A DNA stretch of 64,000 nucleotides from a virus, in IMG/VR virus record IMGVR_UViG_3300045988_082442, positions 96,001-160,000 of that record; one strand, 5' to 3'. Below are positions 3,007 to 49,673 of this stretch, piece by piece (position 1 is the stretch's first letter; each line of letters opens with the position of its first letter). The position numbers and the translations under genes are program-made. The notes under the pieces were generated by a model. The model saw only the letters and a list, made by a program, of their open reading frames with translations. It was not told where the DNA came from and did not search any database.

Positions 3007-3189
3007 ATGAGTGATTATTCAGAAAAAGGAATTTGTAGCATTTGTGGTAAGGAATATACAAATTGGGGAAATAATGCTTACCCAATAAATGATGGAAGAT
3101 GTTGTAATGATTGTAACACATCAAAAGTTATTCCAGCCAGATTAGGAAAATTATTAAACAAGGAGGAAAACGAAAATGAAAAAATGTAG
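3007..3189 (+). CDS. small zinc-ribbon protein
   Basis: 60 aa; CSICG...CCNDCN; RBS AAGGAGG upstream. Confidence 0.6.
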   Translation: MSDYSEKGICSICGKEYTNWGNNAYPINDGRCCNDCNTSKVIPARLGKLLNKEENENEKM

Positions 3190-3325
3190 TATTTGTGGTG
3201 AATATTTTGAAGAGTTTGGAAATAATGCTTACCCAATAAATGATGGGACATGCTGTGGTAAATGTAACGAAGAAGTAGTTATTCCAGCTAGACTAGAGAA
3301 ATTACTAAACAAGGGGGATAAATAA
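3176..3325 (+). CDS. small zinc-ribbon protein, tandem paralog of 3007..3189 (below the ORF-track size cutoff)
   Basis: Hand-translated MKKCSICGEYFEEFGNNAYPINDGTCCGKCNEEVVIPARLEKLLNKGDK; shares GNNAYPINDG.CC..CN...VIPARL..LLNK with the upstream ORF; RBS AAGGAGG 3161-3167. Confidence 0.6.
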   Translation: MKKCSICGEYFEEFGNNAYPINDGTCCGKCNEEVVIPARLEKLLNKGDK

Positions 3326-3570: not shown

Positions 3571-3579
3571 AATGTTTAT

Positions 3580-3629
3580 AAGGATAATTTTACAATCCTT
3601 GCAGGAAACTGCAAACTGTGTAATTTGAT
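3580..3629 (+). ncRNA. CRISPR leader module L1 (two-hairpin element)
   Basis: AAGGAT-aattttaca-ATCCTT then GCAG-gaaa-CTGC then AAACTGTGTAATTTGAT, abutting the first repeat; 7 copies in the window with compensatory changes. Confidence 0.7.
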
Positions 3630-3797
3630 GTTTTATAGCTATGTAAAATGACACAGATGTGAAAGAATCCAACCCAATATAAAGTAGAACAAGGCGTTTT
3701 ATAGCTATGTAAAATGACACAGATGTGAAAGTTCTTTCTAATTTTAATGTCCTTATCATTAGTTTTATAGCTATGTAAAATGACACAGATGTGAAAG
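3630..3797 (+). CRISPR. mini-array 1: 3 repeats, 2 internal spacers of 30 nt
   Basis: Three identical copies of GTTTTATAGCTATGTAAAATGACACAGATGTGAAAG at 3630-3665, 3696-3731 and 3762-3797; spacers AATCCAACCCAATATAAAGTAGAACAAGGC and TTCTTTCTAATTTTAATGTCCTTATCATTA. Confidence 0.9.
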
Positions 3798-3929
3798 ATT
3801 ATGATATGGGAACTATAATGTGGTGTAGTAAGTATAAGGAAGGTCAAGAAGAATTATGCAACAAAGAATGCAGAAAGAGATGGTCTTATGAGTTAAATAT
3901 TTGTAGACCAGATAAGGAGGAATTAGAAA

Positions 3930-6092: not shown

Positions 6093-6120
6093 AGAGAAAA
6101 AAAATTATATAATTTTTAAG

Positions 6121-6157
6121 AAAAATGCTTGACAGAATTTAAAACTTATAGTAGACT
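6121..6157 (+). promoter_or_regulatory. class-1 conserved phage promoter copy
   Basis: AAAAATGCTTGACAGAATTTAAAACTTATAG then TAGACT. Confidence 0.7.
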
Positions 6158-6192
6158 AAGTATAGTTAAAAATAATTTAGGAGGTTATTATA

Positions 6193-9019: not shown

Positions 9020-9041
9020 TGATAGGTTTATAAAAATACAT

Positions 9042-9078
9042 AAAAATGCTTGACAGAATTTAAAACTTATAATAAAAT
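9042..9078 (+). promoter_or_regulatory. class-1 conserved phage promoter copy
   Basis: AAAAATGCTTGACAGAATTTAAAACTTATAA then TAAAAT. Confidence 0.7.
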
Positions 9079-9118
9079 ACATAAAGTAAAAAGAAATAAG
9101 AGGTTAGGAGGATTTATA

Positions 9119-13306: not shown

Positions 13307-13354
13307 TATAGATGTTATAATATATAGATGTTATAATATATAGATGTTATAATA
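13307..13354. repeat. 3 x 16-bp perfect tandem repeat TATAGATGTTATAATA
   Basis: Copies at 13307, 13323 and 13339, followed by the partial copy TATAGAGGTGATATA; each unit contains TGTTATAAT (extended -10-like). Confidence 0.9.
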
Positions 13355-13436
13355 TATAGAGGTGATATATTATGTTGAGAAGAGGAACTGTTTTCTAGGC
13401 AGGTAGTAAAACCCTGCTAGAAAGTAGGTGGACAAT

Positions 13437-13769: not shown

Positions 13770-13807
13770 GATAAGGAGGTATAGAAATATATCTCCTTTA
13801 ATTTTTT

Positions 13808-13822
13808 GTAAAATATTAATGA
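13808..13822 (+). promoter_or_regulatory. class-2 (late-type) motif GTAAAATATTAATGA
   Basis: Exact 15-mer 47 nt upstream of the terminase start. Confidence 0.55.
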
Positions 13823-13868
13823 AGAGGAATTAGTATAAATAAATATATTGAGAAGAGGTAGGTATTAT

Positions 13869-16800: not shown

Positions 16801-17030
16801 TAAGAAGTCTATCAACAGAAAATGCAATAAATAAGAAATTTGGATTTACAGTAGATAGAATGGGTGTAGTACATCTTCAAGATACAGAAAAGAAAGAAAC
16901 AGATAAGCAAGAAGATATAAATGCAATAATAAGTGATGAAATGGAAAAATTAAAAGAACATAAGTCAACAGTAGAAACTGTAGACCCTAATAAATATTGG
17001 GGTAATAAAAGTGGAATGATTATAATATAG
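13869..17030 (+). CDS. terL: terminase large subunit, interrupted in frame by an intein
   Basis: Walker A GSTGTGKST, Walker B-like AAMDEMSF, nuclease-domain motifs HCDLSKSGD, SCDGYQS, GKDISDSLGGAVYNA; likely start ATG 13869 after AGAGGTAGG. Confidence 0.85.
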   Translation: MNEQLDLMTSLSMEELEAVKEILNEISTTGSSEMYDAINLADYEEIPVDLWTFLSRDDLLGKYTNGGKDIYQTWVNELKYVHNPANFVDQWAITGSTGTGKSTVATYSLCYELYKLMCLKNPNRFYLGANETIWFLFFNLNLKLAEKTMWGKFQKALQMSPWFLERGTVSGKTNLVYQPNKDIKLDIGSTEEHALSVAVQFAAMDEMSFGSNDNVEYLQTGMMAIYNQLYLRLSSRFLSAGRIQGRMYLISSAKSTNAVLESFIKDNEGQPGMHVSRYKQWEVLPASKFSGKWFKLAVGNELLESYIMGVDVSDEDVKNVEMQGYQVIDVPLEMMRRFEMDLNRTLIDTCGIAVQSSYKFIPYRIIEPCLGDGINPFKQEIIKTGMKDNMQIKDFFEPEIVPEILYSKKLYIHCDLSKSGDMTGISCVAVLGYKNQERYDAEGNLSTLKEMVFRHVFSIGLQCPANDELSMIKVKDFIHYLKYDLGWNIAGVSCDGYQSLMLLQSLRLDGFTTSEVSMDILKNKECVGYTSFRNALLEKRIYLLKLHELIREITNLEKNETTGKIDHPRQCLTGDTKVRMLDGTSKTMTDLLLDYQNNIPNYVYSFNETTHKIEPNLIKKVWQTRYEKCIYEITLDNDEIIRCTENHPFMLRDGQYIEAKNLKTDDALMPLYTKLAGKGGLKDYRIYYEPMEGRWHFEHTRFDPIRKLKRIKGNVTHHANYNKLDNRPINLKYITKAKHRWIHNRHPGKYENLKRSKTITEWHAQNKNSVEYKARNEKCRIGVINYYVNNPAIMNKKVSSFKNTISKLSTEELSKKFGKNKGRHWYTNGVNNMLLYPTDLVPDGYFKGKTQDGKWYTNGAKTILVKAADDIPDGFYAGRTLEYKNHKVKSIRVRYGYEKVYDLEVENNPNFALDAGVFVHNSTTINKETGEKVKSVGKDISDSLGGAVYNAILSVNLDELDYLDQKILTNDGQGNTYIRSLSTENAINKKFGFTVDRMGVVHLQDTEKKETDKQEDINAIISDEMEKLKEHKSTVETVDPNKYWGNKSGMIII
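15579..16631 (+). mobile_element. intein with HNH-type homing endonuclease insert (351 codons)
   Basis: HPRQ|CLTGDTKVRMLDG (block A, Cys1), ...YDLEVENNPNFALDAGVFVHN|S (block G, His-Asn plus Ser+1); internal THHANYNKLDNRPINLKYITKAKHRWIHN and two WYTNG repeats. Confidence 0.85.
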
Positions 17031-28941: not shown

Positions 28942-28978
28942 AAAAATGCTTGACATAATTTAAAACTTATAATATACT
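28942..28978 (+). promoter_or_regulatory. class-1 conserved phage promoter copy driving CRISPR array 2
   Basis: AAAAATGCTTGACATAATTTAAAACTTATAA then TATACT; no ORF between it and the leader/array. Confidence 0.7.
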
Positions 28979-29008
28979 TATATAAGTTAAAGAATTTATA
29001 ATAAATAT

Positions 29009-29058
29009 AGAGGTAATTTTACAACCTCTGCAGAAAACTGCGAACTGTGTATTTTGAT
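29009..29058 (+). ncRNA. CRISPR leader module L2
   Basis: AGAGGT-aattttaca-ACCTCT, GCAG-aaaa-CTGC, GAACTGTGTATTTTGAT. Confidence 0.7.
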
Positions 29059-29160
29059 GTTTTATAGCTATATAGAATGGCACAGGTGTAAAAGTATACC
29101 ATTTTGGGCTTTCCAAATCTTCCTGTTTTATAGCTATATAGAATGGCACAGGTGTAAAAG
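29059..29160 (+). CRISPR. mini-array 2: 2 repeats, 1 internal 30-nt spacer (plus a degenerate repeat remnant near 29191-29220)
   Basis: GTTTTATAGCTATATAGAATGGCACAGGTGTAAAAG at 29059-29094 and 29125-29160; spacer TATACCATTTTGGGCTTTCCAAATCTTCCT; downstream ...ACATAGAATGGAATAG resembles the repeat core. Confidence 0.85.
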
Positions 29161-29215
29161 AAATTAGTTTCATGAGTTGTAGATATTTGGAATAAAACAT
29201 AGAATGGAATAGATT

Positions 29216-29773
29216 ATGAGTGATTTTAAATTTATATTGTATTTAGATATGGATGGTGTAACAGCATCATCAAGTTATATAATAAAGATACATAATTACA
29301 TAATAAATAAGGAAGATGAAAATAAAGACTGGGAATATAGAAACTTTATGCAAAATTGGTGTTTTCAGAAGGAAGCAGTAGAATGCTTAAATTCTATATA
29401 TGATATAATACCATATAAAATAGTTCTATCAACTACAAGAAGATTTGAACTGGATATAAATGGATGGAACACAGTATTTAAGATAAATAAGATTAAAGCA
29501 AAAATAATAGGAAGAACATCTAAATGTGCATTTGATAAGAATAAATATACTTGGAGAGAAGATGAGATATATAAATATCATTATATAGACCATGACCTAA
29601 AGGACGTACCATTGATAATAATAGATGACGATAGCTTTGATTTACAGAAGTTTGAAGATAAACTAATAAAGGTAGATGGTACAGAAGGACTAACAATGAA
29701 ATACTATAAAGAAATATTAGATAAATTATATAAACAAGGTATTATGTATAAGGGGGATAGTAATGAGTATTGA
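29216..29773 (+). CDS. HAD-superfamily hydrolase-like protein
   Basis: Motif I LDMDGV, motif II LSTTRR, acidic IIIDDD. Confidence 0.5.
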   Translation: MSDFKFILYLDMDGVTASSSYIIKIHNYIINKEDENKDWEYRNFMQNWCFQKEAVECLNSIYDIIPYKIVLSTTRRFELDINGWNTVFKINKIKAKIIGRTSKCAFDKNKYTWREDEIYKYHYIDHDLKDVPLIIIDDDSFDLQKFEDKLIKVDGTEGLTMKYYKEILDKLYKQGIMYKGDSNEY

Positions 29774-30041: not shown

Positions 30042-30048
30042 TAAATAT

Positions 30049-30099
30049 AAGGGTAGTTTTACAATCCTTGCAAGAAATTGTGAACTGTGATATTTTGAT
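30049..30099 (+). ncRNA. CRISPR leader module L3
   Basis: AAGGGT-agttttaca-ATCCTT, GCAA-gaaa-TTGT, GAACTGTGATATTTTGAT. Confidence 0.7.
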
Positions 30100-30325
30100 G
30101 TTTTATAGCTATATAAAATGACACAGATGTGAAAGACACAATTGTTTAAATCTTTTAAAATTTGATGTTTTAGAGCTGTATAAAATAACACAGGTGTGAA
30201 AGGAACGATGTAACTTCTAACAATGAAAAGAGGTTTTAGAGCTGTATAAAATAACACAGGTGTGAAAGGCATTAGTTACTGTGTGTTTTGTTTTAGAGCT
30301 GTATAAAATAACACAAGCGTGAAAG
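30100..30325 (+). CRISPR. mini-array 3: 4 repeats of two subtypes; spacers 31, 30 and 21 nt (degenerate terminal repeat near 30353-30388)
   Basis: R1 GTTTTATAGCTATATAAAATGACACAGATGTGAAAG (30100); R2-R3 GTTTTAGAGCTGTATAAAATAACACAGGTGTGAAAG (30167, 30233); R4 differs only in its tail, ...ACACAAGCGTGAAAG (30290). Confidence 0.85.
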
Positions 30326-30390
30326 TATTTTGAAGATAGTGATGATGTTTTTTGTTTTATAAATATACAAAATATAATAAAATAATTTAA

Positions 30391-30427
30391 TAAAATACTT
30401 GACAAAATTTAAAACTTATTATAGAAT
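30391..30427 (+). promoter_or_regulatory. class-1 conserved phage promoter copy
   Basis: TAAAATACTTGACAAAATTTAAAACTTATTA then TAGAAT. Confidence 0.65.
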
Positions 30428-32003: not shown

Positions 32004-32073
32004 AAATGTTCAGTAAGATGTTAATAAGAATGTAAGTAAGTTTTCTGGTATCTTGATAAAAACCAGAATATAT

Positions 32074-32146
32074 CTCCTTATGGTGTAATAGGCAAACACG
32101 CTACTGAGTGGTGGTAGAATTATAGGTTCGAGCCCTGTTGGGGAGG
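32074..32146 (+). ncRNA. tRNA-like element A (non-canonical anticodon loop, no encoded CCA)
   Basis: Acceptor CTCCTTA/TGGGGAG, D arm GTGT/ACAC, T arm ATAGG-TTCGAGC-CCTGT are good; anticodon stem CTACT/GGTAG closes the loop GAGTGGT, which lacks U33. Confidence 0.5.
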
Positions 32147-32180
32147 ATAAATTCTATATATAGAATAATGTGTTACGCAG

Positions 32181-32266
32181 TATCTGTATTATAAGGTGAC
32201 AAGTACACAGGACGCTGTGGAGGGTTTCAATTCCTGGTAGTTGATTAGGTCTACAAAATACAGATA
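32181..32266 (+). ncRNA. unassigned structured element B (10-bp closing stem)
   Basis: TATCTGTATT (32181-90) pairs with AATACAGATA (32257-66); internal hairpins CACAG-gacg-CTGTG and GTAG...CTAC; not foldable by eye as a tRNA. Confidence 0.35.
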
Positions 32267-32272
32267 TAATAT

Positions 32273-32344
32273 CAGGTGGTAGTTGATAGGAAAACACTTC
32301 TACTAATGTATGAAGAGATGCTGGTTCGAATCCAGCCCTCCTGA
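32273..32344 (+). ncRNA. tRNA-like element C (acceptor/T-arm minihelix intact, D and anticodon arms degenerate)
   Basis: Acceptor CAGGTGG/CCTCCTG (one U-U), T arm GCTGG-TTCGAAT-CCAGC; no convincing 5-bp anticodon stem or 7-nt loop. Confidence 0.45.
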
Positions 32345-32357
32345 CCTTTTCAAAAAT

Positions 32358-32443
32358 GCAAGTATATCTCAACGGCAGAGCAGCCTCCAGTTGGGGGTGA
32401 AAAGTAGCATACGATTGTGTAGGTTCGAATCCTACTACTTGCA
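32358..32443 (+). ncRNA. tRNA-like element D (long variable region, non-canonical anticodon arm, no CCA)
   Basis: Perfect acceptor GCAAGTA/TACTTGC, T arm GTAGG-TTCGAAT-CCTAC, D arm CTC-aacggca-GAG; the central region does not give a standard anticodon arm. Confidence 0.5.
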
Positions 32444-32446
32444 ACC

Positions 32447-32489
32447 TAAAAATGACACAGATGTAAAAGAATATATTCATAGGTTATAT
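32447..32489 (+). CRISPR. solitary crRNA-like unit: repeat 3' handle (23 nt) plus a 20-nt guide, flanked by tRNA-like D and tRNA-Trp
   Basis: TAAAAATGACACAGATGTAAAAG (32447-32469) matches the 3' part of the array repeats; followed by AATATATTCATAGGTTATAT, ending one base before tRNA-Trp position 1. Confidence 0.65.
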
Positions 32490-32564
32490 AGGAGCTTGGT
32501 GTCAATGGTAGCACGACAGTCTCCAAAACTGTGAGTGAGAGTTCAAATCTTTCAGCTCCTGCCA
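32490..32564 (+). tRNA. tRNA-Trp (anticodon CCA), CCA encoded
   Basis: Acceptor AGGAGCT/AGCTCCT, D arm GTGT/GCAC, anticodon arm ACAGT-CTCCAAA-ACTGT, T arm GAGAG-TTCAAAT-CTTTC, G73, CCA. Confidence 0.85.
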
Positions 32565-32778
32565 ACATATCAATAATTCTAAATAAAATAAAAATAATCA
32601 GATTGGGTTTGGTACACCTGTAAGTTTGGGTATAGATATGGTCCTAAAAGGTCAGTCTTGATTATGCACAGAGATGTGCTGGCGAACGGTGAATTATTGA
32701 TATAAACAGATTGGATTATAACCTCTATAAGTTCAAGATAGAATGGGCTTGAAATACAATCTGTCAGTAATTTAATAT

Positions 32779-32864
32779 GGGTAGTTGGGTGAGTGGCTAA
32801 AACCATCAGACTGTAAATCTGACCTCATTTGAGTTCCCTAGTTCGAATCTAGGACTACCCACCA
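32779..32864 (+). tRNA. tRNA-Tyr (anticodon GTA), long variable arm, CCA encoded
   Basis: Acceptor GGGTAGT/ACTACCC, anticodon arm TCAGA-CTGTAAA-TCTGA, variable arm CCTCATTTGAGTTC, T arm CCTAG-TTCGAAT-CTAGG, A73, CCA. Confidence 0.85.
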
Positions 32865-32868
32865 GTAA

Positions 32869-32918
32869 AAGGGCAATTTTACAGCCCTTGCAGGAAACTG
32901 TGAACTGTGTATTCTGAT
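32869..32918 (+). ncRNA. CRISPR leader module L4
   Basis: AAGGGC-aattttaca-GCCCTT, GCAG-gaaa-CTGT, GAACTGTGTATTCTGAT; begins 5 nt after the tRNA-Tyr CCA. Confidence 0.7.
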
Positions 32919-32919
32919 A

Positions 32920-33144
32920 TTTTTATAGCTATATGAAATAATACAGGTGTAAAAGTGTTCTAACTGTTTTAGAGTATAATCGTTTGTTTTACAGATATAT
33001 GAAATAACACAGGTGTAAAAGCTAGACTGTAAATCTGGTCTCATTTGAGTTACTTTGTAGTTATATGAAATAGCACAGATGTAAAATTGGATAATATGTT
33101 CTGAATTGTTTTATAGCTATACAGAAATGACATGGATGTAAGAG
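32920..33144 (+). CRISPR. mini-array 4: 4 diverged repeats; spacers 30, 30 and 20 nt; directly upstream of the effector gene
   Basis: R1 TTTTTATAGCTATATGAAATAATACAGGTGTAAAAG (32920), R2 GTTTTACAGATATATGAAATAACACAGGTGTAAAAG (32986), R3 ACTTTGTAGTTATATGAAATAGCACAGATGTAAAAT (33052), R4 GTTTTATAGCTATACAGAAATGACATGGATGTAAGAG (33108). Confidence 0.8.
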
Positions 33145-33201
33145 TTACGGCTAGGTATAGACATCAATAGTGATAAATAATTTATTTGGGGGTTAAAAAA
33201 A

Positions 33202-35007
33202 ATGAAAAGAAAAGAGTTAAACGAAGGAGTTCACTGTGTAGAATATGCTTTAATGCACATACCAGATGAATATAAGGAATTGTTAGAAAGACAATATAAT
33301 TATATGGAAGATTTCAAGAATGGCTTTATTAGTTATATGTGGAGATATATTTCAAAGCAACGAAAGGAAAACGAAGAATTTGATAAAGCCATGGCTGAAG
33401 TTAGATACTTAAATACAAAGGAAGGAAGAATTATAAAGAAGGATGAACGCTCTAATAGACTAAGTAAAGCATATACAACAATAGGTAATTTTGTAAAAGA
33501 AACAAAGTTATTAGATTCTGGAAGTAGACGAAAAGAATACTACAGTACAGTAAAAAATGTTTATTATGCTTGGATACCAGATGATAGTAGGTCTTATGCA
33601 ATAGATGATGTTTTATCAGCATTTGAAGTATTCTTCTTTGATAGGGGTAAAGCAGTATTCCAAAAGAAATATGGTCATACAAAAATATTACAATTTAAAC
33701 CAGCATACAGTAGAATGAAGAGTACTGGTGAAATCAATACAATAGTACAAACACCTAGCAGAGTTGTATTTGAAAATGGAAATCCTTATTTTGAAATGTG
33801 GGATTTAAGAGATTTAAAAGATATACCAGAAGAAGAATGTCAAAAAGGTAAAAGACATAGTAAGATAAGATTTAGAATGTATTGTAATGATAAAGATGAG
33901 TTACAAAGTTATATAAAAACAAACCCATACATAGGTGGAACTAAGTTATTAAGATACTGGAAGAAGGGAAAATGGAGATATAGAGTTCAATTAAACTTTG
34001 AAGCAATATCACCAGCAGTAAAACAAATGAGCAACGAAGAGCATATAATGGGAATAGACTTAGGTACAGAAACAATAGCTTGGGTAAGAGATGATGGAGA
34101 ACAAGCAATATGGGAGTTATCACCAGATACACCAAGGGTAACAGAAGAAATAAAGGAAATAGATGTATATTTAGATAATTCAAGAAGGGCTATGAATCCA
34201 GAATTATTTAGGGAAGATGGTACTAGAATAAGTAATAGGGAAGCTAGGGAATTAGGATTAGAAGAAAAGCATTCAAAAAGATATATAAAAGCAGCAGCAA
34301 GAAGAAAAGAATGTTTTAGATATTTAGGAGAAAAAAGAAAACTAAATAACAGAATCCTAGCTAAAAAGTTATTTGAATTAGGTAATGAGTTTCATATAGA
34401 AAATAATAAGGTTTCATCTTGGATGTTAAAAAGATGTCACATGGCTCTTAAAACAGCAATGAAATATGCTTCTGGAGCAAGAGCAAGTGATTATGGGAAA
34501 GTTGTAGCAGATAGAGCCCCAGGAATGATAGATGCAAGATTATCTCAATTAGCAGGACAAAAAGGACTTTCATACCATAAAATTGAGAAGATAGAAGGTT
34601 TTAAATGCACAGAATATAATCATTTTACGGATAAGAATGATTTATTCCAATATCTAAATGACAGAATTGTAGTATTAGATGTTGACAGTGTAAATGATGT
34701 CTATAAAGAGTTTATTACTGATTTTGGTGATACAATTACTGATTTAAAAATAGACGGAAAAGACATAATACTACAAAGAGATTTATATGCAGCAGCAAAA
34801 TTAGTTTATTGCACACCATATAAAGAAACTATTGTGAATAGTAAAGGTAGAAAGGTAGAAGTAACAAGATATAAATTTGATAGAGAAGGGTTTAGCAAAT
34901 TCTTTGTTGAGAAATTTTATCCAAAACATTTAGAGTATATAATGAATCTAAGGGCTGAGTTAGCTAATGGTAAGAAGCTAAGTGGTACTGTATTTGGTAA
35001 TATTTAA
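33202..35007 (+). CDS. compact TnpB/Cas12-like RuvC nuclease (putative type V-like single effector, 601 aa)
   Basis: RuvC-I HIMGIDLGTETIAW (D286), RuvC-II GNEFHIENNKVSSWM (E400), RuvC-III DIILQRDLYAAAKL (D527); TnpB-like order of basic helices between motifs; no CxxC zinc finger in the lid/Nuc region; flanked by array 4 and a solo leader. Confidence 0.75.
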   Translation: MKRKELNEGVHCVEYALMHIPDEYKELLERQYNYMEDFKNGFISYMWRYISKQRKENEEFDKAMAEVRYLNTKEGRIIKKDERSNRLSKAYTTIGNFVKETKLLDSGSRRKEYYSTVKNVYYAWIPDDSRSYAIDDVLSAFEVFFFDRGKAVFQKKYGHTKILQFKPAYSRMKSTGEINTIVQTPSRVVFENGNPYFEMWDLRDLKDIPEEECQKGKRHSKIRFRMYCNDKDELQSYIKTNPYIGGTKLLRYWKKGKWRYRVQLNFEAISPAVKQMSNEEHIMGIDLGTETIAWVRDDGEQAIWELSPDTPRVTEEIKEIDVYLDNSRRAMNPELFREDGTRISNREARELGLEEKHSKRYIKAAARRKECFRYLGEKRKLNNRILAKKLFELGNEFHIENNKVSSWMLKRCHMALKTAMKYASGARASDYGKVVADRAPGMIDARLSQLAGQKGLSYHKIEKIEGFKCTEYNHFTDKNDLFQYLNDRIVVLDVDSVNDVYKEFITDFGDTITDLKIDGKDIILQRDLYAAAKLVYCTPYKETIVNSKGRKVEVTRYKFDREGFSKFFVEKFYPKHLEYIMNLRAELANGKKLSGTVFGNI

Positions 35008-35017
35008 TATAAATTAT

Positions 35018-35089
35018 AGGGTAATTTTACAGCCCTTGCAGGAAACTGCAAATAAAATATCATTTTAAAGCTCTATGATATTGTAAAAG
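35018..35089 (+). ncRNA. solo leader module L5 plus truncated degenerate repeat
   Basis: AGGGT-aattttaca-GCCCT, GCAG-gaaa-CTGC, then ATTTTAAAGCTCTATGATATTGTAAAAG (35062-35089), which resembles the repeat ends. Confidence 0.6.
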
Positions 35090-35124
35090 AAACTGATTTA
35101 AAAATCAGTTTGTATATTCTTTTT
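35090..35124 (+). terminator. intrinsic terminator
   Basis: AAACTGATTT-aa-AAATCAGTTT followed by GTATATTCTTTTT. Confidence 0.65.
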
Positions 35125-35156
35125 ATATTTTTTGAATATTTTTTCATTTTAATTTC

Positions 35157-35192
35157 TTTCTATAGCTATTTAAAATACTATAGATATAGAGT
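35157..35192 (+). repeat. isolated degenerate CRISPR repeat
   Basis: TTTCTATAGCTATTTAAAATACTATAGATATAGAGT compared with GTTTTATAGCTATGTAAAATGACACAGATGTGAAAG (about three quarters identical by eye). Confidence 0.5.
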
Positions 35193-35228: not shown

Positions 35229-35252
35229 AAAGGCAGAGAAATCTGCCTTTTT
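35229..35252 (+). terminator. intrinsic terminator
   Basis: AAAGGCAGA-gaaa-TCTGCCTTT continuing into TTTTT. Confidence 0.8.
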
Positions 35253-36743: not shown

Positions 36744-37916
36744 GTGAATTTATTAGATAGTGTAGAAATTCAGAAATTAGAAGAGGATATAAAAAGATAT
36801 GCAAAAGCGTACTACGAGGGAAAAGCTCAAATCTCTGACTATGAGTTCGACAAACTTACAGATAGATTAAGAGATTTAAAACCAGACTCAACTGTATTAA
36901 GAACACCGGGATGGGGATATGAACAAACTGGTACAAAAGTAAAACATAAATATCAAATAGTTAAAAGTTTGGATAAGTGCAGAACATTTGATGAAATTCC
37001 AGAAAGATTTACAAATAAATCAGTAGCATTATCACCAAAACTAGATGGTCTTACAGGTGTATTCTATTATAAAAATGGTAGACTTATAAAAGCAATAACA
37101 AGAGGAAATGGAACAGAAGGCAAGGATATTACAGATAAAGCAAGACTAATAGTAGGTAATGAAATATTAGATAAGAACTTTACAGGTGGTGTTAGAGGTG
37201 AACTTGAAATTTCTAATACTAACTGGGAAATAATAAAGAGCAAATACCCAGAAGCTAAGAATGCAAGGAACTTATGTGCAGGTTGGATAAATTCAAAAGA
37301 CTATAATCCAGATGAAATAAAAATGATAGATTTTATTACTTATAAGGTAACTGGACAAGAAAGAGAAGAAGGAAAAGAAGATATATTTTATGATTTATCA
37401 AAAGTAGATAATATTGGTGAGATATGCTTTAATAGCAATCCAACTAAGTTTAATGTTATAGACTGGCTATCATATAACTTTAAAAATACAATACCAAAGG
37501 TACAAGCAACATTAACAAGAGATGGGTTTCAAGAATTTATGCAAAAGGTATTTACTGAATTTAAAACAAGTGATAGATATAATTTAGATTACGAACTAGA
37601 TGGTATTGTTATATCTGATATAGATGTAATATATCATAGAGCAGAAAATTCATATATTTATGATGAGTGTGCCTTTAAATTTGCAGCTGAATCTGCTGAG
37701 GCTAAGGTTACAGGAATTACTTGGAATATGACAAGAACACAAAGATTAGTTCCCATTGTTCAGTTTGAACCTGTATTTTTATCTGGTGCTGTTTTACAAA
37801 ATGCTACTGGACACAATGCAAAGTTTATATTAGATAATGAAATAAAAATTGGTTCTACTATTGAGATTTGCAGAAGTAATGAAGTAATTCCTTATATAAA
37901 GAAGGTAGTTGATTAA
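36744..37916 (+). CDS. ligA: NAD-dependent DNA ligase, N-terminal fragment (Ia, adenylation, OB domains)
   Basis: YYEGKAQISDYEFDKL (Ia), motif I SPKLDGLTGV, later ELDGIVI, OB end SNEVIPYIKKV; stops exactly before the expected Zn finger. Confidence 0.8.
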   Translation: MNLLDSVEIQKLEEDIKRYAKAYYEGKAQISDYEFDKLTDRLRDLKPDSTVLRTPGWGYEQTGTKVKHKYQIVKSLDKCRTFDEIPERFTNKSVALSPKLDGLTGVFYYKNGRLIKAITRGNGTEGKDITDKARLIVGNEILDKNFTGGVRGELEISNTNWEIIKSKYPEAKNARNLCAGWINSKDYNPDEIKMIDFITYKVTGQEREEGKEDIFYDLSKVDNIGEICFNSNPTKFNVIDWLSYNFKNTIPKVQATLTRDGFQEFMQKVFTEFKTSDRYNLDYELDGIVISDIDVIYHRAENSYIYDECAFKFAAESAEAKVTGITWNMTRTQRLVPIVQFEPVFLSGAVLQNATGHNAKFILDNEIKIGSTIEICRSNEVIPYIKKVVD

Positions 37917-37917
37917 T

Positions 37918-38679
37918 ATGTATGGTTATATCTATTTAGTGCATGACAGTCTAAATAATAGACATTATATAGGACAACACAAATGGACAAAGTATGAATT
38001 ATTAGACGAAGATTACACAAGAGGGTCTGAAAAAGCATTTAGAGATTCCCATGGATTTGATTTATTTAAGATAGACCCAAATTATTTAGGTTCAGGAAAA
38101 CATTTACAAAATGCAATTAAAAAATATGGTAAGAATTATTTTTATATACAAGATATACTTGATATTGCAGAAACAAAACAGGAGTTGAATAAAAAAGAGA
38201 AAGAATGTATTAGACATTATAAATATGTATTAGGTTATAATCTATACAATATTAGTGAGGGTGGTGATGGAGGATATACTGGTAAAGATATTAGTGGTAA
38301 GAATAACCCAATGTATGGAAAACATCATACAGAAGAAACTAAACAGAAATTAAGAGAAATTATGAAATCTAAGGATTTTGAATATTTTAAAACAGACCCT
38401 AGATTTAGACATTATGGCAAAGATAATGGAATGTATGGTAAAAATCATACTGAAGAATCAAAGGAGAGAAACAGGAAAAAACATTTAGGAAAGAAAGTAT
38501 CTGATGAAACAAGAAATAAAATGAGAAAATCACATAACCCAAATAATATGCCCCCAAATCTACAAGGATATAGAGGAATGAATAATGGAATAATATATAC
38601 AAAAATACCACCAGATAAAATAGATAAATACTTGAGTGATGGTTGGAAGTTTGGAAGAATTAAAAAGGAGGATAAATAA
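37918..38679 (+). mobile_element. free-standing GIY-YIG homing endonuclease gene splitting ligA
   Basis: MYGYIYLVHD...HYIGQ, YNISEGG, NUMOD3-like GKNNPMYGKHHTEETKQKL and GKDNGMYGKNHTEESKERN. Confidence 0.85.
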
Positions 38680-39566
38680 TGAATAGATGTGTAAATTTAG
38701 AAGAGAGTGAATATTTACCTACACAATGCCCAGCCTGTGGACATAATTTGGAGTGGGTTGGTGTTGATTTAAAATGTGTAAACACAGAATGTCCACATAT
38801 AGCAGAGAGTGATTTGGAACAGTGGTGTACTATTGTAGGAGAAACAGATGGGTTAGCATGGGTAACAATGAAGCAATATTTAGATAAATTCAATATACAT
38901 AATACAGATGATTTATATAAGAATATAAATACAATGATAGCTACATTACAAGGTGGTAATGCTTCTATAACAGATAAAAAGATTGTAGAGTTTCTAAATA
39001 AGTTATATAAAGATATGATACCAGTAGAAAAAGCATTGATGGGATTAAATATACCAAGATTAAGTGAACAGACAGCAAAATTATTAAATAAAGAGAAAGA
39101 GTTAGTACATGATTTAATGACAATAGGTTCTCAATATACTACTGTAAAGGATAGAGATATGATTTCTATTCCAGATACATTAAAGAATAAACTATTAGGA
39201 TTAGTTAAAGAAGCAACAACAGAATCTATATTAAGTAATTTAGGAAAGTTGAACACACTACATTATTTATATGAACAAGATACACCTAGAATTATATTCA
39301 ATGACAATACTGATGAAATTATAAAGGTTGCTGTTACTGGCTCATTAGAGAGTATGAAAAGAAGTGCTTTTGAGAAGTATATACAAAGTTATGGATATGA
39401 ATTATCTAGTAGTATTAAATCTTGTAAATATTTAATAACTAATAATCCGAACAGTGGTTCAAGCAAGAATAAAGATGCCCAAAAATATGGTGTTGAAATC
39501 ATAACTGAAAAAGAATTTTTAGATAAATTAGGTAAGGTAACTACTAAATCTAATACATTGTTTTAA
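38679..39566 (+). CDS. ligA: NAD-dependent DNA ligase, C-terminal fragment (Zn finger, HhH, BRCT)
   Basis: CPACGHNLEW...CVNTECPH, then a helical region, then BRCT-like VAVTGSLESMKR...YLITNNPNSGSSKNKDAQKYGVEIITEKEF. Confidence 0.8.
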   Translation: MNRCVNLEESEYLPTQCPACGHNLEWVGVDLKCVNTECPHIAESDLEQWCTIVGETDGLAWVTMKQYLDKFNIHNTDDLYKNINTMIATLQGGNASITDKKIVEFLNKLYKDMIPVEKALMGLNIPRLSEQTAKLLNKEKELVHDLMTIGSQYTTVKDRDMISIPDTLKNKLLGLVKEATTESILSNLGKLNTLHYLYEQDTPRIIFNDNTDEIIKVAVTGSLESMKRSAFEKYIQSYGYELSSSIKSCKYLITNNPNSGSSKNKDAQKYGVEIITEKEFLDKLGKVTTKSNTLF

Positions 39567-42432: not shown

Positions 42433-42494
42433 TGTGAATACATCTAACAGTACATATTTGTTAGATGTATATTTTATATATAGGAGGATTTAAT

Positions 42495-43289
42495 ATGGGA
42501 ATAGATTATAAAACAATAAGTCATGAATTACCAGACAATTTATTATGGCTGGAAGATAGAACAATATTACTAACAAAGGCAGGTTCATACATATATGGGA
42601 CAAACATAGAAACATCAGATACAGACTATAAAGGTGTTTGTATCCCACCAAAAGAATATTATTTAGGTTTAAAATCAATAAATGAATATAATAAATCTGG
42701 TGGTAAAAACTTTGGTGAAAGAAATACCAAAGATGATATAGATATAGTTGTATGTCATATAAATAAGTTTGTAAGAGATGCTATGAATGGTATTCCAAAT
42801 AATTTAGATATACTATTTTGTAGAGATGAGGATGTAATTTATATGGATGATTTTGGTAAGGAGTTAAGAGATTTTAGACATGAGTTCTTATCAAAAGAAG
42901 TATTCAAAAAGTTCTCAGGTTACGCTTTATCACAAAAACATAAAATAGAGACTAAAAAGAATCATGGAACTGGAAGAAGAGAATTAGTAGAAGAATTTGG
43001 GTATGACTGTAAATTTGCTTATCATGCTGTAAGACTAATATTAGGTGCAACAGAAATATTAGAAACACATGATTATCATTCATATAGACCAGAAAGGGAA
43101 TGGTTAGTAGAAATAAGAAAAGGTAAATATACACTAGAAGAAATATTTGATATAATAGAAGATTTAGATGCAAAACTAAAAAGTGCTTATGAAACAAGTA
43201 CATTAAGAGAAAAACCAGATTATCATAAAATAAATAAATGGCTAATAGGTTTAAATGAAAGAGCATTGAATTATGACTTTAAAAGGTAG
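42495..43289 (+). CDS. RlaP-like nucleotidyltransferase (PF10127-type)
   Basis: ATG 42495 after AGGAGG; KAGSYIYGTNIETSDTDYKGVCIPP... Confidence 0.6.
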   Translation: MGIDYKTISHELPDNLLWLEDRTILLTKAGSYIYGTNIETSDTDYKGVCIPPKEYYLGLKSINEYNKSGGKNFGERNTKDDIDIVVCHINKFVRDAMNGIPNNLDILFCRDEDVIYMDDFGKELRDFRHEFLSKEVFKKFSGYALSQKHKIETKKNHGTGRRELVEEFGYDCKFAYHAVRLILGATEILETHDYHSYRPEREWLVEIRKGKYTLEEIFDIIEDLDAKLKSAYETSTLREKPDYHKINKWLIGLNERALNYDFKR

Positions 43290-43445: not shown

Positions 43446-44213
43446 ATGGGAAATTCAAGAATAAAAACATTAAGTGATAGAATGAAAGATTATGAGTTAG
43501 CATCTGATTACAGACTAACAAAGAAAACACCTGTAATAGTGAGAATAGATGGTAAATCATTTCACACCTTTACAAAAGGATTAGATAAACCTTTTGATAG
43601 TATATTATCAGAAGCAATGAACTATGTTTGTAGAAAATTAGTAGAAACAGTACAGGGCTGTAAGTTTGCATATACACAATCAGATGAGATAAGTTTATTA
43701 TTAACAGATTGGGATAAATCAACAACAGATTGTTATTTTGATTATAGGGTACAGAAAATGGTATCAGTATTAGCTTCAGCAGCAACTATGTATTTTAATC
43801 AGTATATAGTATCAAGAGTTTTATACTGGCAAAAAGGAGAGTCAGAATTATCAGAAAAGTTATTTGATAAATGGGCTGCAAAAGCTGGTTGTGCAATGTT
43901 TGATGCAAGAGCATATAATTTGCCAAAAGAAGAAGTATGTAATTACTTTATATGGAGACAAGAAGATGCAAGCAGAAATTCTATACAGTCATTAGGCAGA
44001 AGTAGATTTTCATTTAAGCAAATGTTAAATAAAAAGAACAATGAAGTACAAGATATGCTGTTTAATGAATATGGTATAAATTGGAATCGTATAGATACTA
44101 AATGGAAAAGAGGATTTGCAGTATGTAGAGATAAAGATGGTATAAAATCAGACTTTGAGATACCATTATTTAAAAAAGATAGAGCATTTATAGACAAATA
44201 TCTTATAGTATAA
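43446..44213 (+). CDS. Thg1-like protein (tRNA-His guanylyltransferase family, 3'-5' nucleotidyltransferase)
   Basis: VIVRIDGKSFHTFTKG, AYTQSDEISLLL, and the later FDARAYNLP...NYFIWRQEDASRNS typical of Thg1/TLP. Confidence 0.8.
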   Translation: MGNSRIKTLSDRMKDYELASDYRLTKKTPVIVRIDGKSFHTFTKGLDKPFDSILSEAMNYVCRKLVETVQGCKFAYTQSDEISLLLTDWDKSTTDCYFDYRVQKMVSVLASAATMYFNQYIVSRVLYWQKGESELSEKLFDKWAAKAGCAMFDARAYNLPKEEVCNYFIWRQEDASRNSIQSLGRSRFSFKQMLNKKNNEVQDMLFNEYGINWNRIDTKWKRGFAVCRDKDGIKSDFEIPLFKKDRAFIDKYLIV

Positions 44214-45269: not shown

Positions 45270-45276
45270 TAGATAT

Positions 45277-45309
45277 AAGGGTAATTTTATAACCCTTGCA
45301 GGAAACTGC
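45277..45309 (+). ncRNA. solo leader module L6 (no intact repeat follows)
   Basis: AAGGGT-aattttata-ACCCTT, GCAG-gaaa-CTGC; then GAACTATTTTTAATAGATATAAAAGC, only a faint repeat remnant. Confidence 0.6.
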
Positions 45310-45390
45310 GAACTATTTTTAATAGATATAAAAGCTTTTTTCGATACCCCAATTTATAAGATAAATAAAACAGAATAGAGGTAGGAAGTT

Positions 45391-47859
45391 ATGAGAAATT
45401 TAGTAGTATTAAGAGGATGCCCAGGTGCAGGGAAATCAACTTGGATAAAAGAAAATGGTTTAGAGCCTTATACATTATGTCCAGATACAATAAGGACAAT
45501 GGTAAGTGCTCCAGTATATACAGAAGAACATGATACTGAGATGACTATATCTCAGCAAAATGAAACTTATACATGGAATTTATTATTTGAATTACTTGAA
45601 AATAGAATGAAGAATGGTGATTTTACAGTAATAGATGCAACACATAGCAGGTCATCAGATTTTAGTAGATATAACGATTTATGTTCTACATATAGATATA
45701 GAAGATATACTGTATCATTTACAGATGTACCAGAAGAAGTATGTAAACAAAGAAATCTGGAAAGAGATGCCTATAAACAGGTACCACCTGAAGTTATAGA
45801 AAAGATGTATGCTAGATTTGCAACACAAAATAAAACAAGTGGATGGACAGAAATTCCAAGAGATAAATTCTGGGAAGTATTTAGTAATAAAGTGTTTGAT
45901 TTTAATAAGTATGAAAAAGTTCATATATTTGGTGATATTCATGGATGTTATGACCCACTAGAACAATATATAGTAGATAGCTATAATGGAGATGATGTAC
46001 ATGAAGATTTAAGCCCAGAAACATTAAAGAATTTATTAAATAAAGATGAGGCTTATATATTTGTAGGTGATTACTTAGATAGAGGATTACAAAATAAAGA
46101 AGTTTTAAAATTTATGATTTCAATATGTCAATTAGATAATGTTTTATGCTTAGAGGGAAATCACGAAAGATATTTATGGTATTGGGCTAATGAACAAGAT
46201 AATGAAATAAGAAGTAAAGAGTTCTTTAATCATACAGTACCACAAATAAGAGGTATATCTCCATCTGATATAAGACAATTTTATAGAAAATTAGGACAAA
46301 TGGCATTATTTACATTTAATAATGAAACATATTTTGTAACACATGGTGGATTATCATTATTACCAGAACACTTACCATTAGTATCAACAAATTGTCTAAT
46401 AAATGGTACAGGAAGATTTAAGTTTCCAATAGATGAAAGATATACAGAAAATATGCAAGGTAAAAATGTATTACAAGTACATGGTCATAGAAATATGGAA
46501 TGTGATTATAAAGGAAAACTACCTTTATCATTCTCACTAGAAGATAGAGTTGAGTTTGGTGGTAATTTTGTAGTATTAGAAATAAATGAGAAAGGTAATT
46601 ACTTCCATAGAATAAAGAATGATACATTTAGGGAACCTGATTATGACAATAAAGAAGAAGAAATAATACCAGCATTTGATATGACAATGGACAATATTGT
46701 AGAAAGAATGAGATTGAATAAGAACATAAAAGAAACAGTGCTACCAGATGGTATATCATCTTTTAACTTTACTAGACAAGCATTTGAAAAAGATAGATGG
46801 AACTCAGAAACAGTTAAAGCAAGGGGATTATTTATAGATACTGAAAACAATAAAATAGTTGCAAGAGGATATGAGAAGTTCTTTAATATAAATGAACAAG
46901 AAAACTGTAAATTATTTAATCTAAAATCATTATTTAATACAGGATTACCTGTAATTGCATATAAGAAGTATAATGGATTTTTAGGAATATTAAGTTATTA
47001 TCATGATGAGTTAAAATTCCATTCAAAATCTACTAATATAGGTGATTATGCAAACTACTTTAAAGACCTATTTTATAAAAGATTTACTGACAAACAAATA
47101 GATATGATTACAGATTATTTAAAGAATAATAATGTATCAATGGTATTTGAAGTTATAGACATAGACAATGACCCACATATCATAGAAGAAAAAGAAAGCA
47201 GAGTAGTTTTATTAGATATAATCAGAAATGAAGTAGAGTTTAGCAGATTACCTTATGACCAGTTATTACTTTTAGCAAACTTATGGGGAATAAAAGAAGA
47301 TGGTGTAAAACAAATATATAAAGAATTTACATCATACAGAGAGTTGACTGAGTTCTATGAAATACATAAAGATGATAAAAACTTTAATGATATTGATATA
47401 GAAGGAGTTGTAATAGAATGTGGTAACTTTATGACAAAGCTTAAATTTAATTATTATAGATTCTGGAAGGGTATGAGAAGTGTTGCAGAAAAATTACAAA
47501 GTGGAAGAGATAATGTAAAATTAAGTATGTTATACAATGCAACTGCAAACTATTTCTATAAGTTTGTAAAAGATATGGTAGAAGAAAAACAGTTAGAACT
47601 TCTAAAAATAAAAGATACATTAGGATTGGGAGATATAAATGCTGGTGATTTAAGAAGAGCAGAATTAGACTTTGAAAATAATATGATTACAATTCATAAA
47701 AGAGATAGAAGAGCTTATTATATAGGAAATGATATTACAGCAGAAAATGTTATTACAGCAACAACAACCCCAGAAATAATGAACAAACTATCAGAACTAC
47801 AAAAATCAAAGGATATAATAACATTAAGAAACGAATATTATAGAAATGGTGGTGTTTAA
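45391..47859 (+). CDS. Pnkp-like RNA repair enzyme (polynucleotide kinase, metallophosphatase, RNA ligase)
   Basis: Walker A GCPGAGKST; GDIHGC, GDYLDRG, GNHE, HGH; ligase motif I AYKKYNGFLG; the same domain order as bacterial Pnkp. Confidence 0.75.
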   Translation: MRNLVVLRGCPGAGKSTWIKENGLEPYTLCPDTIRTMVSAPVYTEEHDTEMTISQQNETYTWNLLFELLENRMKNGDFTVIDATHSRSSDFSRYNDLCSTYRYRRYTVSFTDVPEEVCKQRNLERDAYKQVPPEVIEKMYARFATQNKTSGWTEIPRDKFWEVFSNKVFDFNKYEKVHIFGDIHGCYDPLEQYIVDSYNGDDVHEDLSPETLKNLLNKDEAYIFVGDYLDRGLQNKEVLKFMISICQLDNVLCLEGNHERYLWYWANEQDNEIRSKEFFNHTVPQIRGISPSDIRQFYRKLGQMALFTFNNETYFVTHGGLSLLPEHLPLVSTNCLINGTGRFKFPIDERYTENMQGKNVLQVHGHRNMECDYKGKLPLSFSLEDRVEFGGNFVVLEINEKGNYFHRIKNDTFREPDYDNKEEEIIPAFDMTMDNIVERMRLNKNIKETVLPDGISSFNFTRQAFEKDRWNSETVKARGLFIDTENNKIVARGYEKFFNINEQENCKLFNLKSLFNTGLPVIAYKKYNGFLGILSYYHDELKFHSKSTNIGDYANYFKDLFYKRFTDKQIDMITDYLKNNNVSMVFEVIDIDNDPHIIEEKESRVVLLDIIRNEVEFSRLPYDQLLLLANLWGIKEDGVKQIYKEFTSYRELTEFYEIHKDDKNFNDIDIEGVVIECGNFMTKLKFNYYRFWKGMRSVAEKLQSGRDNVKLSMLYNATANYFYKFVKDMVEEKQLELLKIKDTLGLGDINAGDLRRAELDFENNMITIHKRDRRAYYIGNDITAENVITATTTPEIMNKLSELQKSKDIITLRNEYYRNGGV

Positions 47860-49186: not shown

Positions 49187-49193
49187 TAAATAT

Positions 49194-49243
49194 AAGGATA
49201 ATTTTACAATCCTTACAGGAAACTGTGAACTGTGTAATTTAAT
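49194..49243 (+). ncRNA. CRISPR leader module L7
   Basis: AAGGAT-aattttaca-ATCCTT, ACAG-gaaa-CTGT (compensatory relative to GCAG/CTGC), GAACTGTGTAATTTAAT. Confidence 0.7.
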
Positions 49244-49673
49244 ATCCTATAGCTATATAAAATGACACAGATGTGAAAGTATTGCAACATTAAAATACCC
49301 TATTTTTGGGGTTTTATGGCTATATAAAATAACACAGATGTGAAAGAGGGATTTTGTTTTGTTAGCATTTATTTCTGTTTTATAGCTATATAAAATGACA
49401 CAGATGTGAAAGTCTGGAACAAATCTTGAAAAGTCCAGCTTTGTTTTATGGCTATATAAAATAACACAGGTGTGAAATAATTCAAAGTATTGTTCAAATA
49501 GTTTCTGTGTTTTATAGTTATATAAAATGACACAGATGTGAAAGGAATACTAAAATAAAGTAGCAATTGAGCTAGTTCTATAGCTATATAAAATGACACA
49601 GATATGAAAGTTAAGCTCATGAATGATAGCAACAATAGTTTTATAGATATATAAGAAGCAGAAAGGAGAAAAT
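49244..49673 (+). CRISPR. mini-array 5: 6 good repeats plus a degenerate terminal repeat; spacers 31, 30, 30, 30, 30 and 27 nt
   Basis: Repeats at 49244, 49311, 49377, 49443, 49509, 49575 (for example GTTTTATAGCTATATAAAATGACACAGATGTGAAAG at 49377); terminal GTTTTATAGATATATAAGAAGCAGAAAGGAGAAAAT at 49638. Confidence 0.9.

Follow-up and report, generated by a model that had tools for sequence, protein, structure and literature searches.

What is a compact RuvC protein doing among the repeat arrays of a large phage, and do the gene and the arrays belong to one system? The question is raised by a 64,000-nucleotide (nt) stretch of the IMG/VR virus record IMGVR_UViG_3300045988_082442 (positions 96,001-160,000), here called the window, within which all coordinates are given. 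An open reading frame (ORF) at 33202..35007 on the + strand, with an ATG start, encodes a zinc-finger-less, TnpB-derived RuvC protein of 601 amino acids (aa), and the same window holds five arrays of a 36-nt repeat and 30-nt spacers together with a conserved leader in seven copies (five at the arrays, two solo). A first-pass annotation had taken this protein for the only candidate effector of the window, representing either a new type V lineage peculiar to phages or a TnpB under domestication. No cas1, cas2, cas4 or second effector was found among the 40 window ORFs of at least 150 aa, and the sequence and fold of the protein, the lack of TnpA, the synteny of the gene, its linkage to guide modules and the pairing between leader and repeat all agree with that proposal. 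We consider that the 601-aa protein is probably a domesticated, non-mobile descendant of TnpB that acts as the single effector of a phage-borne, adaptation-less type V-like CRISPR system.

The three RuvC motifs recognized in the first reading of the sequence are all found in the 601-aa ORF: GIDLGTETIA with D286, EFHIENNKVSSW with E400 and ILQRDLYAAAKL with D527. The predicted topology comprises a WED/REC region at residues ~1-280, in line with what had been supposed for the N-terminal part, a RuvC domain at ~280-535 into which a Cys-free TNB-like segment is inserted, and, at ~536-601, a C-terminal domain. The reported lack of a CxxC...CxxC pattern between RuvC-II and RuvC-III extends from the window protein to all 16 members of its family, in which a conserved (C/S)TYNHFT motif occupies the zinc-finger position. 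Zinc-finger-less TnpB branches are already known, so this loss is not exclusive. The protein had also been placed among the smallest Cas12-type effectors; it is indeed small but not the smallest, as the solved Cas12f, TnpB and Cas12p chains have 340-530 residues.

Sequence searches securely relate the protein to TnpB. Matches in tblastn, with E-values down to 6e-19, were to annotated IS200/IS605 OrfB/TnpB genes, those of Geobacillus virus E3 and of two Clostridium phages, c-st and phiCD211, and the PHROG 506 family, labelled 'transposase', matched at 3e-11. Pfam gave no match to the protein. The NCBIfam model guided_TnpB scored 17 bits against a cut-off of 100 (the best family member reached 1.2e-9, still below the cut-off), and no Cas12 model of NCBIfam matched. 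Among the PADLOC Cas models there were only partial matches, to Cas12f (4.1e-7, over 194 aa) and Cas12u3 (6.3e-6), and searches of the PDB with the single sequence or a profile returned nothing at E<=10, hence no solved Cas12 or TnpB chain. An AlphaFold model built from 16 sequences has a mean predicted local distance difference test score (pLDDT) of 84.6 and a predicted template modelling score (pTM) of 0.75; it replaced an earlier model from 8 sequences that was poor in the RuvC-II/III region (pLDDT 65). Its best structural match in Foldseek was AsCas12f (E 4.7e-11, TM-score normalised to the target, TMt, 0.62), accompanied by ISDra2 TnpB (TMt 0.60, with TnpB as a group at 0.56-0.60) and Cas12m2 (TM-score normalised to the query, TMq, 0.47). 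These three matches are full length, all at 10-12% identity, and those to Cas12p, Fanzor2 and LaTranC are weaker (E 2e-6 for LaTranC). The viral predicted structures that match the model are TnpB-like 'transposases' only. Sequence and fold alike place the protein firmly within the TnpB/Cas12 superfamily, in its compact class, and no named Cas12 or TnpB family claims it.

The family is small and confined to phages. A word-indexed search of 5.8 billion proteins recovered just 8 relatives, and an exhaustive profile search of 1.84 billion representatives recovered ~14 full-length clusters plus fragments, the clusters all coming from phage contigs. With the family profile, 526 proteins were retrieved at E<=1e-10, of which the sampled nearest outside the family were divergent TnpBs. 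A score gap follows the family clusters (from ~1e-41 to 3e-32), and beyond it lie sub-threshold, divergent TnpBs, ~500-aa proteins that match in the RuvC core only. A protein-pattern scan of 185,579 species genomes yielded no relatives. The repeats behave likewise: a degenerate repeat pattern gave 8 isolated single matches at chance level and no arrays in those 185,579 genomes, applied to IMG/VR the same pattern picks out arrays in phage contigs of 193-209 kb, and neither repeat nor leader had a match in Rfam, its CRISPR-DR and trans-activating CRISPR RNA (tracrRNA) models included.

The RNA that these modules would encode proved the most telling part of the analysis; it was examined in the leaders of 25 arrays from six phages, with pairs counted on a register-fixed alignment. 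The leader, of ~50 nt, consists in order of hairpin 1 (H1), hairpin 2 (H2), 3-4 nt, a 10-nt anti-repeat and a 3-30-nt linker, after which the repeat begins. H1 has a 6-bp stem and the loop AAUUUUANA; 98% of its cells are paired and four of its six pairs show compensatory changes. H2 has a 4-bp stem and a GNRA-type loop, all of its cells are paired and three of the four pairs are compensatory (GCAG/CUGC, GCGC/GCGC, GCGG/CCGC, ACGG/CCGU). The anti-repeat is 92% paired with repeat nt 17-26, with compensatory changes in 5/10 pairs. None of 500 shuffles reached the observed values, and slid controls gave 31-46%. The anti-repeat tracks the repeat variant of its own array even inside one phage (for example UAUGUAAUUU, UGUGUUAAAU and UAUGUAAAAU against the repeats AAAUUACAUA, AUUUAACACA and AUUUUACAUA), and leaders fit their own array better than the other arrays of the phage. 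In addition, the H1 loop pairs with repeat nt 30-35, where the variable pair at repeat nt 30 is GC in nine arrays, CG in eight, UA in five, UG in two and other in one; an alternative partner inside the repeat is paired in just 17 of the 25.

From these pairings, two helices join the leader to the two-thirds of the repeat nearest the spacer, with a pseudoknot beside the guide. A two-helix contact with a pseudoknot beside the guide is also the logic of the omega-RNA and of the tracrRNA:CRISPR RNA (crRNA) pair in the TnpB and Cas12f structures. The anti-repeat is fused in cis as the leader of the array, not encoded as a separate gene, and forms with the repeat a tracrRNA-like covarying structure. 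Folding of the whole repeat on itself (a hairpin of nt 2-13 with 24-35) was considered and rejected, for only its outer part holds and nt 25 and 30 covary with the leader. Transcription from the minus strand, or a reading resembling a Cas9 single-guide RNA (sgRNA), was rejected in view of G-U pairs that are possible on the + strand only (such as the GU in 19/25 arrays at one H1 position), the promoter of leader 2 and the orientation of the genes, which all lie on the + strand. The promoter position and these G-U pairs also support expression of the RNA. In some leaders the anti-repeat stands in two or three tandem copies; this was seen at 7855-7884 of locus L001, where TATGTAATTT is found three times ahead of a 6-repeat array, at 8178-8247 of L009 and at 13099-13177 of L024.

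Many leaders begin a few nucleotides behind the 3' end of a tRNA, as does that of array 4 in the window and those of several arrays in L001, L009 and L024, an arrangement that suggests their release by tRNA processing. Array 4, just upstream of the effector gene, is an instance. Five tRNAs (His, Ile, one without assigned identity at 32357-32446, for which ARAGORN gave no anticodon, Trp and Tyr) form a + strand cluster at 32073..32864, and the 3' end of tRNA-Tyr is only 4 nt before H1 of leader 4, so that the 5' end of this leader is probably set by tRNA processing. Leader 4 (32867..32919, +; covariance-model match 32867-32955, 69.9 bits) has H1 at 32869-32889 (AAGGGC/AATTTTACA/GCCCTT), H2 at 32890-32901 (GCAG-GAAA-CTGT) and the anti-repeat at 32906-32915; array 4 follows it at 32920..33145 (+) with four partly degenerate 36-nt repeats starting at 32920, 32986, 33052 and 33110. 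Downstream, 10 nt past the effector stop codon, lies a solo leader (35015..35095, +, 50.5 bits) with H1 at 35017-35037 and H2 at 35038-35049 whose anti-repeat is lost; one degenerate, shortened repeat comes after it (~35064-35091), then a hairpin with a T-run (35092-35125, +) and a decayed repeat-like stretch read directly from the sequence (~35152-35190, +). The array and tRNA cluster upstream and the solo leader with decayed repeats downstream thus stand as first described, and the solo leader is a decayed copy of the downstream array of related phages.

The gene and array 4 would be transcribed together. A sigma-70-type phage consensus promoter (TTGACA-17-TAGAAT, 11/12 positions matching) lies at 30399..30427 (+), and the unit that starts from it holds a 534-aa ORF, the tRNA cluster, leader 4 with array 4, the effector gene and the decayed leader unit, closed by an intrinsic terminator at 35229-35250 (+); we regard this as a single operon. 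The promoter is one of 11 copies of a conserved box of ~44 nt, with the sequence AAAAATGCTTGACAnAATTTAAAACTTATAAT, all on the + strand (579-622, 6117-6160, 9038-9081, 23282, 23669, 28938, 30387, 35258, 39614, 43377 and 53288); the box is probably the early or middle promoter consensus of the phage.

The linkage between gene and guide modules was then followed through homolog loci drawn from ENA, Logan, NCBI, IMG/VR and JGI, on phage-like contigs whose length reaches 195 kb and whose effector homologs show 32-55% identity. Guide modules lie within 2 kb of the gene in all 11 loci examined, mostly on both sides of it; this count leaves out a twelfth independent locus, L030/L031, whose contigs are ~2.3 kb long and which encodes the 99%-identical protein P0001. 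Arrays with a period of 66 nt are present in ten loci (the window, L001, L003, L007, L008, L009, L024, L025, L026 and L028). By a covariance model of leader plus first repeat, a leader stands ~10 nt past the stop codon in nine of the ten loci where this region is available (the window, L001, L003, L007, L009, L024, L025, L026 and L029), which is the position of the omega-RNA in TnpB genes; Cas12 arrays also usually sit on the 3' side of their gene according to a published survey. The repeat sequence drifts along with the protein across loci. In L028, which has the most divergent homolog (32% identity), the arrays (10241-10540, 11906-12078 and 13800-13965) keep the 66-nt period, but both their 36-nt repeat, GTTATAGTATAACCAAAAATAGTAGGAGTGTAAAGG, and their conserved leader are of another sequence; the effector stop codon there has no leader behind it. 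L029, whose protein carries Asn at RuvC-I, has mostly single units of leader, partial repeat and guide, omega-RNA-like in appearance (1892-2751). The related loci, judged by their precomputed Pfam annotation, contain no adaptation module (cas1/cas2/cas4).

Taken with the intact motifs, this arrangement allows a mechanism to be proposed. Guide RNAs would be made from the + strand leader-array modules, five in the window and often directly behind tRNA genes. The leader and the 3' two-thirds of the repeat would form a bipartite, pseudoknotted repeat:anti-repeat scaffold immediately 5' of the 30-nt spacer; the protein would bind this scaffold and the spacer, 3' of it, would guide it to complementary DNA, which the window protein, with D286, E400 and D527 intact, would cut. 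Competing phages, other mobile elements or the host would be the likely targets.

In this respect spacer 2 of array 4 (33022-33051) resembles the tRNA-Tyr of the phage itself (32808-32835) at 26 of 28 positions, and matches the tRNA-Tyr of L001 (6909-6935) and of L009 (2090-2115) with three mismatches. The resemblance hints at a conflict between related phages, with a guide directed against the tRNA gene of a rival; it could also be a local duplication of the neighbouring tRNA.

Several points weigh against a guide-dependent nuclease system of this kind. The tRNA-Tyr-like match was the only one obtained when all spacers were compared with the window and the related loci, no protospacers were found in GenBank phages for 93 spacers, and none in IMG/VR for three spacers searched as exact patterns. 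Lacking Cas1-Cas2, the system also has no evident route by which new 30-nt spacers would be acquired. The covarying leaders are related by descent and their pair statistics overstate independence, and an outer stem of the repeat (nt 2-8 with 29-35) competes with the pairing of the H1 loop. Array density is high in these phages (seven arrays in 21 kb of L001) and synteny is inherited, so that adjacency is weaker evidence than the number of loci suggests. Binding of the RNA by the protein, the direction in which the guide is used, cleavage and the targets are steps that we infer. Finally, the RuvC-I Asp (D286) is kept in 7/16 family members and replaced by Asn in eight and by His in one. DNA cleavage is thus not conserved family-wide, and a role in DNA binding or RNA processing becomes possible for some members.

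This last point is the basis of the strongest alternative, in which the system would be RNA-guided but non-cutting, binding and silencing DNA as do Cas12m, Cas12c and TldR, or using RuvC for processing of the precursor crRNA only. The nine members with Asn or His at RuvC-I have also replaced the RuvC-II Glu, eight of them by Asp; P0020 has Ser at RuvC-II, and in P0009 the glutamate column holds Arg with an adjoining Asp. The Asn-type locus L029 still has leader-guide modules, Cas12m2 is among the best structural matches, and one subclade may by default make a product without RuvC-III, as described below. Yet the window protein and six other members retain the canonical D-E-D triad, the QRD of RuvC-III is invariant in 16/16 members, and the Asn/Asp pair might remain catalytic, given that rearranged RuvC sites have been published for TnpB clades. 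Overall we find this alternative unlikely.

The subclade in question comprises L001 (~11354-11375), L009 (~7695) and L024 (~11345), from different samples, in which the effector homolog requires a +1 shift at an identical site. The site, GCT CCA C|GG AAT, creates a rare CGG codon, where the window reads CCA GGA with its frame intact. Frame 0 ends after 466-481 aa, and the +1 frame supplies the C-terminal 153 aa including RuvC-III. It is a candidate programmed +1 frameshift, which would yield truncated and full-length products.

A second alternative holds that the phage mini-arrays load onto a Cas effector of the host, or act as decoys for it, the TnpB-like gene being a mere neighbour. The 36-nt repeat, the 30-nt spacer and the GTTTTAG... 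start of the repeat do resemble type II arrays, phage-encoded guide mimics of Cas9 have been published, and the arrays are spread over the genome, mostly distant from the gene. A host effector, however, leaves several facts without a place: the repeat family is absent from the 185,579 species genomes and from the CRISPR-DR and tracrRNA models of Rfam, a leader stands at the stop codon of the gene in nine of ten loci, in L028 the repeat and leader have diverged in step with the protein, and a scaffold 5' of the guide with a bipartite anti-repeat is the layout of type V and TnpB, not of Cas9. We judge it very improbable. Least credible of all is an ordinary mobile TnpB of the IS200/IS605 or IS607 type, with its omega-RNA, inserted by chance in the phage next to unrelated arrays, because although the closest annotated relatives are IS200/IS605 OrfB 'transposases' of Clostridium phages, PHROG 506 carries the label transposase and the RNA element overlaps the 3' end region of the gene in the manner of an omega-RNA, no TnpA, serine recombinase or any transposase domain occurs among the 40 window ORFs that reach 150 aa, the 64 kb hold one copy of the gene, its position is syntenic across diverged related phages with flanks shared with L003 (a 520-aa ORF upstream, DNA ligase downstream), the family is limited to ~14 phage-contig clusters separated by a score gap from the nearest TnpBs, and the downstream RNA leads multi-spacer arrays instead of one guide set by a transposon end.

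The proposed domesticated TnpB with its arrays can be compared with the RNA-guided systems already described. With TnpB and its omega-RNA (IS200/IS605 elements such as ISDra2) the system shares the homologous RuvC core, the WED-REC-RuvC fold and an xRDxxAA-type RuvC-III motif, as well as a structured RNA that begins at the gene's 3' end, places the scaffold 5' and the guide 3' and has a pseudoknot-type contact beside the guide. It differs in that the effector is ~200 aa larger, with expanded REC/WED and a C-terminal domain, and has lost the C4 zinc finger; there is no TnpA, there are no transposon ends and the gene is single-copy; and the guide-proximal segment of the scaffold is reiterated into multi-spacer arrays of 36/30 nt, with extra modules genome-wide.

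Cas12f (type V-F) provides the best structural match and a weak match to hidden Markov models, and resembles the present system in its compact effector, its short arrays and its many loci without adaptation genes. The Cas12f tracrRNA pairs with the repeat in two segments. Identity to Cas12f is, however, only 10-12%, no Cas12f model is significant over the full length and our protein has no zinc finger; furthermore, the tracr-like part is here the leader of every array, matched to the repeat variant, and the system was found in phage contigs only. The TranC/Cas12-U (V-U) systems are TnpB lineages that CRISPR arrays captured independently, an evolutionary position like the one proposed here. They are alike in their TnpB-sized protein, repeats of 32-38 nt, short arrays (median ~5 repeats) and lack of an adaptation module, some of their clades are phage-borne, and the leader-plus-repeat layout agrees with the idea of an omega-RNA divided or duplicated to give tracr and crRNA. 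The comparison with TranC was made through LaTranC only; the solved LaTranC chain has no detectable sequence similarity to the effector, and its fold match is weaker than that of Cas12f. The family may already lie inside an unnamed V-U or TranC clade of published surveys.

Cas12j/CasPhi, CasLambda, Cas12p and Cas12r are likewise single compact RuvC effectors of large phages, without cas1/cas2 and with a presumed role in conflicts between mobile elements. The effector had no sequence match to solved Cas12 chains, however, and in fold CasLambda and Cas12p match it less well than do Cas12f and Cas12m. To our knowledge each genome with one of these phage effectors has a single locus for it instead of numerous leader-array modules. 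Cas-delta (867-936 aa) and Cas12r, of Thermus phages, were also considered and did not fit the effector, as judged by their descriptions in the literature. As for the RNA, the leaders of Cas9 and Cas13 arrays, in a concept set out in PMC13187072, contain a segment complementary to the first repeat that covaries with it, and the leaders described here also pair and covary with the repeat. Unlike them, they have two conserved hairpins, a contact between the H1 loop and the 3' part of the repeat, solo copies and a site at the stop codon, features that fit a protein-bound scaffold better than a blocking hairpin.

The remaining leader-array modules of the window are all on the + strand. Leader 1 with array 1 (3578..3827, covariance model 80.6 bits) has three repeats, at 3630, 3696 and 3762; just upstream of it is a direct repeat pair of 137 nt with 77% identity (3034-3170 and 3185-3321). 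Leader 2 with array 2 (29007..29190, 72.8 bits), of two repeats, has a consensus promoter immediately upstream (28950-28978), and this position speaks for transcription of the + strand. Leader 3 with array 3 (30047..30355, 71.9 bits) has four repeats, at 30100, 30167, 30233 and 30290, and leader 5 with array 5 (49192..49640, 76.4 bits) has six. The second solo leader (45275..45334, 52.6 bits) keeps H1 and H2 intact, has a degenerate anti-repeat and no array; a T-run follows it, and it lies just upstream of an RNA ligase/kinase gene. It is either what is left of a former array or a tracr-like RNA that stands alone.

The window itself is a low-GC (~29%) phage segment with every gene on the + strand, including amidase, T4 gp15-like, DNA ligase, RNA-repair and tRNA-related genes. 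Megablast with 20 kb of it gave no match to GenBank phages, which indicates that the phage has no close sequenced relative there. Genes for RNA repair and tRNA metabolism are dense, with HAD_SAK_2 (29216-29773), RlaP (42465-43289), a Thg1-like tRNA-His guanylyltransferase (43446-44213), a kinase-phosphatase-RNA ligase fusion (45391-47859) and the five tRNAs (32073-32864), and several guide modules are interleaved with them. The NAD-dependent DNA ligase gene is seemingly split (36744-39566): its adenylation and OB domains occupy 36744-37916 and the BRCT part 38679-39566, with an ORF for a GIY-YIG/NUMOD3 SegE-like homing endonuclease between them (37909-38679), whereas the ligase of L003 is one 670-aa ORF. 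A 1060-aa ORF (13848-17030) contains an intein splicing domain at residues 589-928 (Pfam E 2.2e-22), and a perfect 16-nt tandem repeat, ATATAGATGTTATAAT, in ~3.4 copies (13306-13367), is placed at the end of a 1418-aa ORF.

As to novelty, surveys put the inferred captures of TnpB by CRISPR arrays at ~50 independent events and also infer 40 groups of Cas12-U and over 20 clades of TranC, phage-borne ones among them; one more capture is therefore not a new category. A tracr-like leader fused in cis and specific for its array, its multiplication behind tRNA genes over a phage genome, and a zinc-finger-less 601-aa effector were not found described in the literature searched. A more far-reaching idea, which we advance tentatively and rate at somewhat under even odds, is that this phage lineage keeps a living intermediate between the omega-RNA of TnpB and the CRISPR-tracrRNA pair. 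Each array would have its own cis-fused tracr module, folding with the neighbouring repeat into a pseudoknotted scaffold like that of an omega-RNA, the first unit being a natural single-guide RNA and the later units crRNAs that borrow the leader; the modules would have multiplied behind tRNA genes and be freed by the tRNA-processing enzymes of the host. The phage would thereby own a multi-locus, adaptation-free RNA-guided nuclease system with a 601-aa protein, and subclades would have moved to an Asn/Asp active site or placed expression under frameshift control.

If the domestication reading is true, the system represents an independent, phage-only capture of TnpB by CRISPR-like arrays, and its RNA would show the path from omega-RNA to tracr plus crRNA, with the tracr part still joined to each array and co-evolving with the repeat of that array. 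As a tool it would offer a compact, zinc-finger-less effector of 601 aa with a guide scaffold of ~75-90 nt readable from the natural sequence, and the natural tRNA-guide arrays resemble those engineered for multiplexing. The Asn-type and frameshifted relatives would provide natural contrasts between cleaving and non-cleaving versions. For the phages themselves, many small arrays in a genome of ~100-210 kb without adaptation genes would suggest an RNA-guided conflict with other phages or with the host.

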